Sequence record: OW991345
DNA from: Escherichia phage vB_Eco_AL25
Reading direction: 5' to 3' (one strand)
DNA: 64,000 nucleotides
The position numbers were made by a program, and so were the translations under genes. A model generated the notes under the pieces. The model worked only from the letters and a program-made list of their open reading frames with translations, was not told where the DNA came from and did not search any database. This document shows, in pieces, positions 41,903 to 42,826 of this stretch; positions within the stretch are counted from its first letter, which is position 1; each line of letters opens with the position of its first letter.

Positions 41903-42271
41903 ATGTTAGGTGATAACACTAATGCTCTGTTTGGAGTGTCAGCCAGACCTATTATCATTGTTAATAAACATCATGGTAAAAAGGGTGAATATATTGGGCG
42001 TGGTTCTCCTCTGGGTAATCCATTCGTTATTGGTAAAGATGGAACCAGAGAAGAAGTAATTGCCAAATATAAAGTATGGCTGCAAGAACAGATTGATAAA
42101 GGTAATCCAGTTGTACTGGATGAATTAAATCGTCTTGGTAATAAAGCCATTGATGAAAAAGGATTAGCTTTACAGTGCTTCTGTTATCCAAAACCTTGTC
42201 ATGGTGAGGTTATTAAAGAGAAGTTAGTAAAAGCTATGTATAACTACTTTGTGGAAAATCCTAATGGATAA
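41903..42271 (+). CDS. DUF4326-like protein (GNPF motif), 122 aa
   Basis: GRGSPLGNPF...REEVIAKYKVWL...LQCFCYPKPCHGEV resembles the DUF4326 family as I recall it. Confidence 0.45.
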   Translation: MLGDNTNALFGVSARPIIIVNKHHGKKGEYIGRGSPLGNPFVIGKDGTREEVIAKYKVWLQEQIDKGNPVVLDELNRLGNKAIDEKGLALQCFCYPKPCHGEVIKEKLVKAMYNYFVENPNG

Positions 42272-42449
42272 ACAATGCAAATGTGGTAAAGGCTATGTAT
42301 CCCAATGGGATGGTAAATGTGGTCATTGTAGAACCAAGAAAGAACAACGTGACCATGAATATGCACTTCAGGAAATGATTGTACCTGTTGAGAATTTAGG
42401 TATGGCTCCACTTGAGGCTTACAAATACATAAGGAGATTATGCAAATGA
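42264..42449 (+). CDS. small Cys-rich (zinc-ribbon-like) protein, 61 aa
   Basis: CKCG...CGHC pattern. Confidence 0.4.
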   Translation: MDKQCKCGKGYVSQWDGKCGHCRTKKEQRDHEYALQEMIVPVENLGMAPLEAYKYIRRLCK

Positions 42450-42826
42450 AAGAAGTATTCGTATTTGGTTCTAACCTTGCTGGTGTACATGGTGCTGGTG
42501 CTGCAAAGACAGCATATAAGAAACATGGAGCCAGATGGGGTAAAGGGCATGGTCATTACGGTGACAGCTATGCTATTCCCACTAAAGATACCAATATCAA
42601 AACGATGACTATTGAAGACATTCGTACATTTGTAAACGCCTTCATTGTCTATGCTGCTAATCATCCAGAACTTAACTTTAAAGTTACTCGTGTAGGTTGT
42701 GGATTAGCTGGTATTGATGATTCTGTTATGGCCTCTATGTTTGAAAATGCCACTGATAACTGTTCCTTTGACTTAGCATGGAAAAGTTACTTAGGGGATG
42801 ATTTCAACTACTGGGGAACGTTCTAA
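42440..42826 (+). CDS. Rossmann/macro-like early protein, 128 aa
   Basis: FVFGSNLAGVHGAGAAKTA...GDSYAIPT...TRVGCGLAG glycine-rich nucleotide-binding-like motifs; family not pinned down. Confidence 0.4.
   Translation: MQMKEVFVFGSNLAGVHGAGAAKTAYKKHGARWGKGHGHYGDSYAIPTKDTNIKTMTIEDIRTFVNAFIVYAANHPELNFKVTRVGCGLAGIDDSVMASMFENATDNCSFDLAWKSYLGDDFNYWGTF

Follow-up and report, generated by a model that had tools for sequence, protein, structure and literature searches.

What do three small genes placed directly in front of an RNA polymerase do for a phage at the start of infection? This question is raised by a 64,000-nucleotide stretch of DNA from Escherichia phage vB_Eco_AL25 (sequence record OW991345), the whole of which is referred to here as the window. 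The window comes from an Enquatrovirus N4-type coliphage, and its bases 41000-45000 match vB_Eco_SPSP at 100% identity and N4 at 98.5%. Set beside the annotated records of N4 and of Bas69/AlfredRasser, the three open reading frames (ORFs) prove to be N4 gp12, gp13 and gp14, all on the + strand and directly upstream of gp15 and gp16, the genes of the phage RNA polymerase RNAPII. An earlier reading of this DNA, made from the letters alone (the sequence-only reading), had described the three products as a DUF4326-like protein, a small Cys4 zinc-ribbon-like protein and a Rossmann/macro-like protein. It had proposed that they are early host-takeover or anti-defense factors and that the third might bind or process nucleotide signals. 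The analysis described here determined that the three genes are evolutionarily linked and that gp14 is a macrodomain. We put the probability at roughly 0.55 that gp12-14 form an early-expressed module for ADP-ribose removal or processing with a counter-defense role.

The three genes and their starts

The ORFs and the motifs quoted for them in the sequence-only reading are present where it had placed them, just before the RNAPII genes. The gp12 gene (41903-42271) encodes a DUF4326 protein of 122 aa that carries both GNPF and CYPKPCHGE. The gp13 gene (42264-42449) encodes 61 aa with a Cys4 knuckle or ribbon near the N-terminus, and gp14 (42440-42826 for a 128-aa product or 42446-42826 for a 126-aa product) encodes a stand-alone macrodomain that contains FVFGSNLAGVHGAGAAKTA and TRVGCGLAG. 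These are real genes rather than chance ORFs, because they are annotated in N4-type phages that are 98.5-100% identical and because the family matches are strong: Pfam DUF4326 at E 9e-23 for gp12, phrog_13804 at E 7e-36 for gp13, and both NF049995 (E 1e-45) and phrog_2072 (E 2e-57) for gp14. Homologues of each of the three proteins number from hundreds to thousands.

The gp13 gene starts at ATG 42264, which overlaps the gp12 stop codon; the TTG at 42249 that was given by the ORF lister is not the start. The true start of gp14 is probably ATG 42446 (126 aa) and not 42440. This ATG shares an ATGA with the gp13 stop codon (TGA) and has an AAGGAG 9 nt away; it is also the start chosen in the RefSeq N4 record, and it fits homologues that have MKE N-termini. 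Translation of gp13 is thus coupled to both of its neighbors.

gp14 is a macrodomain

gp14 is a macrodomain and represents a minimal, distinct member of the TARG1/DarG/Poa1p structural neighborhood that is a copy of no characterized enzyme. The AlphaFold2 model, built from a 38-sequence alignment, is confident (predicted local distance difference test, pLDDT, 93.7) and has the three-layer alpha/beta/alpha arrangement of the macro fold. Its nearest structural neighbors are DarG, nsP3, Poa1p and TARG1, which are hydrolases that act on macromolecules or on ADP-ribose-1''-phosphate. The macro part of the earlier label for this protein therefore stands and the Rossmann part does not; a SLOG fold, which was considered along with the Rossmann fold, is likewise ruled out by the macro fold of the model. 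Searches of the PDB with the single sequences of gp12 and gp14 gave no significant match.

At the sequence level, gp14 matches the NCBIfam family NF049995, 'A1S_2505 family phage non-structural protein', with an E value of 1.4e-45, and it also belongs to phrog_2072. A profile search of 1.84 billion representatives returned 5112 relatives (representatives at 50% identity), including 852 at E < 1e-30, and with clustering at 90% identity at least 8000 clusters of the family received a score. An alignment of the family profile with TARG1 (the sequence used is identical to PDB 2lgr) extends over 60 columns, with an E value of 0.35 in hmmsearch and 1.7e-5 in hhalign. K49 of gp14, which is at least 90% conserved in the family, aligns with the catalytic K84 of TARG1, and in the hhalign alignment the GCGL of loop 2 (R84-V-G-C-G-L-A-G91) falls on TARG1 residues 121-124, within the stretch PRIGCGLD. 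Loop 1 of gp14 reads S11-N12...H17-G-A-G-A-A22; its HGAGAA can be matched to MGAGIA of TARG1, a local match that is not significant alone, as 143 of 2000 shuffles equaled its score. In thousands of clusters, high conservation is seen at the residues that line the presumed active site (S11, N12, H17, K49, G86-G88).

gp14-type macrodomains with 34-37% identity are also found inside giant multi-domain proteins of crAss-like phages (BFVD A0A7M1RUN7 from cr50_1 and A0A7M1RZQ7 from cr116_1; NC_055881 2126-2497). One of the giant proteins that carry this domain is annotated as ART-PolyVal-like and another as 'putative RNA polymerase'.

gp12, its relative gp9, and gp13

The DUF4326-like call for the first protein was correct. 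gp12 matches Pfam DUF4326 (PF14216) with a score of 81.1 bits, where the cutoff is 25, and an E value of 9.4e-23. A diverse alignment of 53 sequences was obtained from a search seeded with the DUF4326 half of P0348, a metagenomic fusion protein that is described below; the first search with gp12 had given only sequences that were at least 89% identical. Two motifs are near-invariant in the diverse alignment, YIGRGSPLGNP (residues 30-40) and C-x-C-x-P-K-x-C-H-G-D-V-I. The second corresponds to C92-x-C94-x4-C99-H100 in gp12, and each of the three Cys residues as well as H100 is at least 90% conserved. The AlphaFold2 model of gp12 (pLDDT 94.2) shows a small domain of the alpha/beta kind, whose Cys-rich loop joins a central strand to the last helix. 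Its best structural match is RapZ-C, followed by PTP/DUSP folds, and precomputed assignments show that some gp12 homologues also match the Pfam family 'active DUF488-N3' (PF22751). The prediction for gp12 is an enzyme-like domain that depends on Cys and belongs to the RapZ-C/DUF488/DUF4326 type. This clade was reportedly defined by Burroughs and Aravind in 2023 in NAR Genom Bioinform, and we know of no DUF4326 member with a demonstrated activity. According to a published prediction, DUF4326 is a domain of the rhodanese-phosphatase type whose role is to process phosphates attached to the ribose of ADP-ribose, and its fusions with Macro, SLOG and NADAR domains have been described (PMC9503650, PMC7824862). 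The loop of gp12 has the form C-x5-H, whereas the phosphatase loop of the rhodanese-phosphatase superfamily is C-x5-R.

The sequence-only reading did not include a second, degenerate DUF4326 protein, N4 gp9 (41082-41417, + strand). This paralogue matches Pfam DUF4326 with an E value of 3.3e-4, which is below the cutoff, and phrog_464 with an E value of 1.7e-20. Both GRGS and CxCx4CH are missing in gp9 and in all 15 gp9-type ORFs of related loci, whereas CxCx4CH is present in all 20 of the gp12 type. The loss of these motifs makes gp9 probably non-catalytic and suggests a derivative with a possible regulatory or decoy role. The degenerate type has been retained in 15 related loci, either beside the motif-bearing gp12 type or in place of it.

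The Cys4 zinc-ribbon-like description of gp13 also held. Four Cys residues in two pairs (C5-x-C7-x11-C19-x2-C22) supply the putative ligands of a zinc ribbon or knuckle, and they are invariant in 14 of 14 distinct homologues, including the versions that are fused to DUF4326. The C-terminal half of the protein is variable among homologues. Matches to the N-terminal 27-30 aa occur as well in podophages of 42-45 kb among the hits listed, for example K1E, Vectrevirus and LIMElight.

Gene fusions and gene neighborhood

The link between the three genes, which is absent from the sequence-only reading, is seen in gene fusions. The metagenomic protein P0348 (225 aa) joins a gp12-like DUF4326 domain (46% identity) head-to-tail to a gp14-like macrodomain (49% identity), and the gene adjoining it upstream is DprA/SLOG-like by a weak match. 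In three proteins from N4-like contigs of ~74 kb (P0415, P0403 and P0425) the Cys4 motif of gp13 is fused to the N-terminus of DUF4326. The early region of one of these contigs has a NADAR-YAcAr fusion upstream of the Zn-ribbon-DUF4326 gene and a gp14-type macro gene downstream of it. Additionally, 58 long members of the gp14 family were scanned against Pfam and were found to carry NADAR (4), YAcAr-SLOG (4), DprA-SLOG (3) and WYL_2 (2) domains as well as one instance each of DUF4326, the Acb2/Tad1 hairpin and DUF488-N3a.

In the related 74.9 kb N4-like contig L003, an early gene at 2452-3237 encodes a NADAR-YAcAr(SLOG) fusion, and the ORF at 4499-5137 (212 aa) matches nothing in Pfam. This ORF is located between the Zn-ribbon-DUF4326 and macro genes, so the block tolerates an extra gene at that position. 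In the window itself, gp11 (41580-41900, 106 aa) opens with ILIVHDADFNDVD, which resembles the N-terminus of YAcAr/SLOG domains that other N4-like phages encode next to their DUF4326 and macro genes. In a BLASTP comparison gp11 matched the YAcAr domain with an E value of 0.098 over only 37 residues, and searches of Pfam and NCBIfam with gp11 gave no match.

In one alternative, the module acts on small ADP-ribose-derived immune messengers, and not on modified macromolecules, and silences signaling defenses. gp14 would then bind or cleave the cyclic or histidine-linked ADP-ribose of Thoeris-type systems, and gp12 would trim the phosphates of these messengers. We consider this alternative unlikely. 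The hydrolases that are structurally closest to gp14 act on macromolecules or ADP-ribose-1''-phosphate, the TARG1-type lysine is conserved in gp14, and neither a SLOG nor a sponge partner is detectable in the N4 block, where gp11 provides only the match given above.

Synteny was examined in 80 viral loci that carry a gp14-type macro gene. A motif-bearing DUF4326 gene lies within 4 kb of the macro gene in 20 of them, always upstream and on the same strand, and a Zn-ribbon gene abuts the macro gene in 12. One locus has a NADAR-DUF4326 fusion and one has a YAcAr-macro fusion. Downstream of the macro gene and on the same strand, a homologue of gp15, the small subunit of RNAPII, is found in 51 of the 80 loci, separated from it by a median of 208 nt. 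What stays constant among these loci is the macrodomain. In the window, gp15 is located at 42901-43710 and gp16 at 43758-44972 (both on the + strand); gp16 encodes 404 aa and is annotated from 43758 rather than 43722, and the gp15/gp16 pair matches phrog_2166/phrog_2051 and Pfam RNA_pol.

In another alternative, the macrodomain serves the transcription or RNA metabolism of the phage itself and not defense. It could be a Poa1p-like ADP-ribose-1''-phosphate phosphatase or nucleotide-binding cofactor, or it could keep adducts off the single-stranded templates of N4 RNAPII, with gp12 as an accessory phosphoesterase. However, a conserved order of genes can be passed down within a single family of phages even if the genes have no functional link, and the fusion partners NADAR, SLOG and Acb2/Tad1 point to conflict systems. 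Moreover, the scan of ten window ORFs gave neither a Tpt1/KptA-type source of ADP-ribose-1''-phosphate nor an ADP-ribosyltransferase (ART). A role in the phage's own transcription or RNA metabolism is quite unlikely in our estimate.

In bacteria, the neighbors and fusion partners of gp14-family members include DUF7666/pentapeptide, DUF6371/Zn_ribbon_16, Mur ligase, GATase, radical SAM, alpha/beta hydrolase and DprA-like proteins. Some of these contexts recur, and the bacterial genome loci L097 and L106 are among those that show recurring contexts. The macro gene of two Acidobacteria genomes has DUF7666 proteins as its flanking neighbors, one of them with pentapeptide repeats, and in one of these genomes a DUF6371/Zn_ribbon_16 protein flanks it as well. 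In two metagenome-assembled genomes of Bacteroidota the gp14-type macro gene comes after a gene that resembles a Mur ligase or after one for a GATase (peptidase C26).

Early promoters and genome context

The time at which gp12-14 are expressed is indicated by three hairpins on the + strand of the window. One is located at 42844-42864, between gp14 and gp15, and consists of the arms AAGCTGC and GCAGCTT around a TCC loop, followed by TTTTGG. The other two promoter-like hairpins lie at 38388-38406 and 38857-38875, upstream of gp1 and gp2, respectively. The pattern GCTYCGCNNNTTWTGG has exactly three sites in the window (38391, 38860 and 42849), which share the + strand and precede gp1, gp2 and gp15. 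The motif GCTYCGC-N3-TTWTGG within a hairpin of 5-7 bp occurs three times in the 64 kb where shuffles give an expectation of 0, but as the hairpin pattern was derived from the same three sites, this statistic shows only that there is no fourth copy. The hairpins match the early promoters P1-P3 described for the virion RNA polymerase (vRNAP) of N4 (PMC4496689), and the copy at 42844 is probably P3. The position of gp12-14 between the vRNAP promoters P2 and P3 fits the same description of N4 early transcription and would make them early genes, in agreement with the early expression proposed in the sequence-only reading. With the third hairpin between gp14 and gp15, RNAPII would have an early promoter of its own, and the T-rich tail of this hairpin may also terminate the upstream early transcript.

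The window also crosses the junction of the N4 genome ends, with N4 coordinate 1 falling at ~38299, beside a C10 run at ~38330. Since the window spans the genome ends, the assembly is circularly permuted or concatemer-style. The late genes precede the early region in the window, and the vRNAP gene is located at 2667-13169 on the minus strand.

A proposed ADP-ribose-removal module

In the mechanism that we propose, the injected vRNAP would transcribe gp12-14 before the phage replicates. Loops 1 (HGAGAA) and 2 (GCGLAG) of gp14 probably hold the diphosphate of ADP-ribose, and Lys49 probably releases ADP-ribose from DNA, RNA or protein that has been tagged by a host ART. gp12 probably acts in the same pathway, with a ribose-phosphate end or remnant as its likely target. 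gp13 would be a Zn-ribbon accessory that may target the enzymes to nucleic acid. With transcription taking place before replication, the module would shield the incoming genome and transcripts from host defenses that act by ADP-ribosylation. Such a counter-defense role is plausible by analogy with other phage proteins, which are compared below. The anti-defense, host-takeover or nucleotide-signal function suggested in the sequence-only reading is likewise plausible, and the NADAR, SLOG, DUF4326 and Acb2/Tad1 fusions strengthen it. Judged by its fold, gp14 is at least as likely to strip ADP-ribose from macromolecules as to act on nucleotide signals. Catalysis, substrate and defense target are inferred in this mechanism, whereas the folds, the motifs, the fusions, the synteny and the early position were observed.

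A more specific form of this mechanism can be envisaged, to which we attach a low probability. The Zn-ribbon, DUF4326 and macrodomain proteins would together make up a multi-step pathway, not described before, for ADP-ribose removal on nucleic acid. In it, phage DNA or RNA would be freed of ADP-ribose by the macrodomain, the DUF4326 protein with its Cys/His loop would clear the remaining ribose-phosphate or repair the end, and the Zn-ribbon would bring both to nucleic acid. The pathway would have been kept for the single-stranded DNA (ssDNA)-dependent transcription of N4-like phages. The macro gene would have stayed next to the RNAPII genes because this transcription depends on extruded ssDNA hairpins and single-stranded templates, which would be the preferred substrate of DarT-type ssDNA ADP-ribosyltransferases.

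Several observations weigh against an ADP-ribose-removal module. The first group concerns gp14 itself. It matches no Pfam macro family at E <= 0.1, including Macro (PF01661). At the second catalytic position of TARG1, D125, gp14 has an invariant Ala (A90), and the TARG1 mechanism therefore does not apply unchanged. Direct homology to the T4 macrodomain AdfM/Tk.4 was considered and dismissed, as hhalign gave only a 14-column match at the PRIGxG loop with a probability of 0.95%. The second group concerns gene context. No motif-bearing DUF4326 gene lies within 4 kb of the macro gene in 60 of the 80 viral loci, and 53 of the 80 lack any DUF4326-family match, so the macrodomain works without DUF4326 in many phages. 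Most of the 80 loci are N4-like, and the synteny counts are thus not independent events. Bacterial gp14-family genes adjoin unrelated genes, and among ten neighbors and fusions at 20 genome loci no ART or toxin partner was found. A family of 'N4-like ART' is named in PMC9503650, and Pfam scans of the ten unannotated window ORFs did not find a phage ART; none is listed by the BASEL annotation over 50 kb of the record. Finally, PADLOC gave no match for any of five proteins, and no experiment or functional data on N4 gp12-14 were found in the literature searched, including the CRISPRi-ART paper.

Some of these points would also suit three independent small early proteins, with gp14 as a non-catalytic ADP-ribose 'reader' or protein-protein inhibitor and with gp12 and gp13 as unrelated host-takeover factors. 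The replacement of TARG1 Asp125 by Ala in gp14 and the lack of a DUF4326 or Zn-ribbon gene at most macro loci are in its favor, and many macrodomains only bind their ligand, as is known from domains of the macroH2A type. Two kinds of fusion, however, tie all three genes together, and the start and stop codons of gp12, gp13 and gp14 overlap. The conservation of S11, N12, H17, K49 and G86-G88 in gp14 argues for catalysis or precise ligand binding. We regard independence of the three proteins as improbable.

Major bacterial defenses work through ADP-ribosylation of phage DNA and RNA (DarTG, CmdTAC) and through NAD-derived signaling. The phage enzymes that reverse ADP-ribosylation (AdfN, AdfM, AdfB) are only lately coming to light. 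The gp14 family is very large, lies outside Pfam and is found next to RNAPII across N4-like phages of many hosts, and the fusions mark out three genes of a classical model phage as one unit that is open to experiment. If a substrate were shown, thousands of phage genes would gain a function, as would a domain of unknown function; should gp14 be a plain macrodomain hydrolase, it would be a routine addition to a known class. The public labels 'DUF4326 domain-containing protein' and 'macrodomain protein' already existed, and the association of DUF4326 with Macro, NADAR and SLOG domains is published. What is new here are the confident folds for the N4 proteins, the active-site comparison of K49 and A90, and the conserved adjacency of the macro and RNAPII genes. 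Also new are the Zn-ribbon-DUF4326 fusions that draw gp13 into the module and the split of DUF4326 into a catalytic-looking gp12 type and a degenerate gp9 type.

Comparison with known systems

TARG1/OARD1 and the DarG antitoxin macrodomain, of the ALC1-like macrodomain class, share 17-19% identity with gp14, and gp14 differs from TARG1 at the catalytic Asp125 as noted above. gp14 consists of a single domain of 126-128 aa without the DarT-binding C-terminal domain of DarG. In DarTG, toxin and antitoxin are paired, whereas no DarT or other ART adjoins gp14, whose neighbors are gp13 and RNAPII, or its bacterial relatives (ten window ORFs and ten neighbor genes). The missing Asp125 counterpart and the lack of an ART both near the bacterial genes and among the scanned phage ORFs speak against a simple reading of gp14 as an orphan DarG. 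Macrodomains of the Poa1p and viral nsP3 type, which are associated with ADP-ribose-1''-phosphate phosphatase activity and de-MARylation, give no significant sequence match to gp14, and the annotations are automated. For gp12, the comparison is with the RapZ-C/DUF488/DUF4326 branch described by the Aravind laboratory: gp12 scores above the Pfam threshold, and the published fusions with Macro, NADAR and SLOG (PMC7824862, PMC9503650) were recovered here.

Precedents for the proposed role are found in phages. The phage macrodomain AdfM (T4 Tk.4) counters DarTG2 (bioRxiv 10.1101/2025.11.20.689424), and the NADAR protein AdfN, a phage orphan enzyme, counters DarTG1 (PMC11825919). A Tk.4 homologue is a distant structural match of gp14 (BFVD E 1.8e-3, TMq 0.61). 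The two belong to different macro families, as Tk.4 matches Pfam Macro (E 2.9e-6) and gp14 does not. Like gp14, AdfM and AdfN are stand-alone phage proteins that have ADP-ribose-erasing folds and no linked toxin, and NADAR domains recur as fusion partners or neighbors of the gp14 family.

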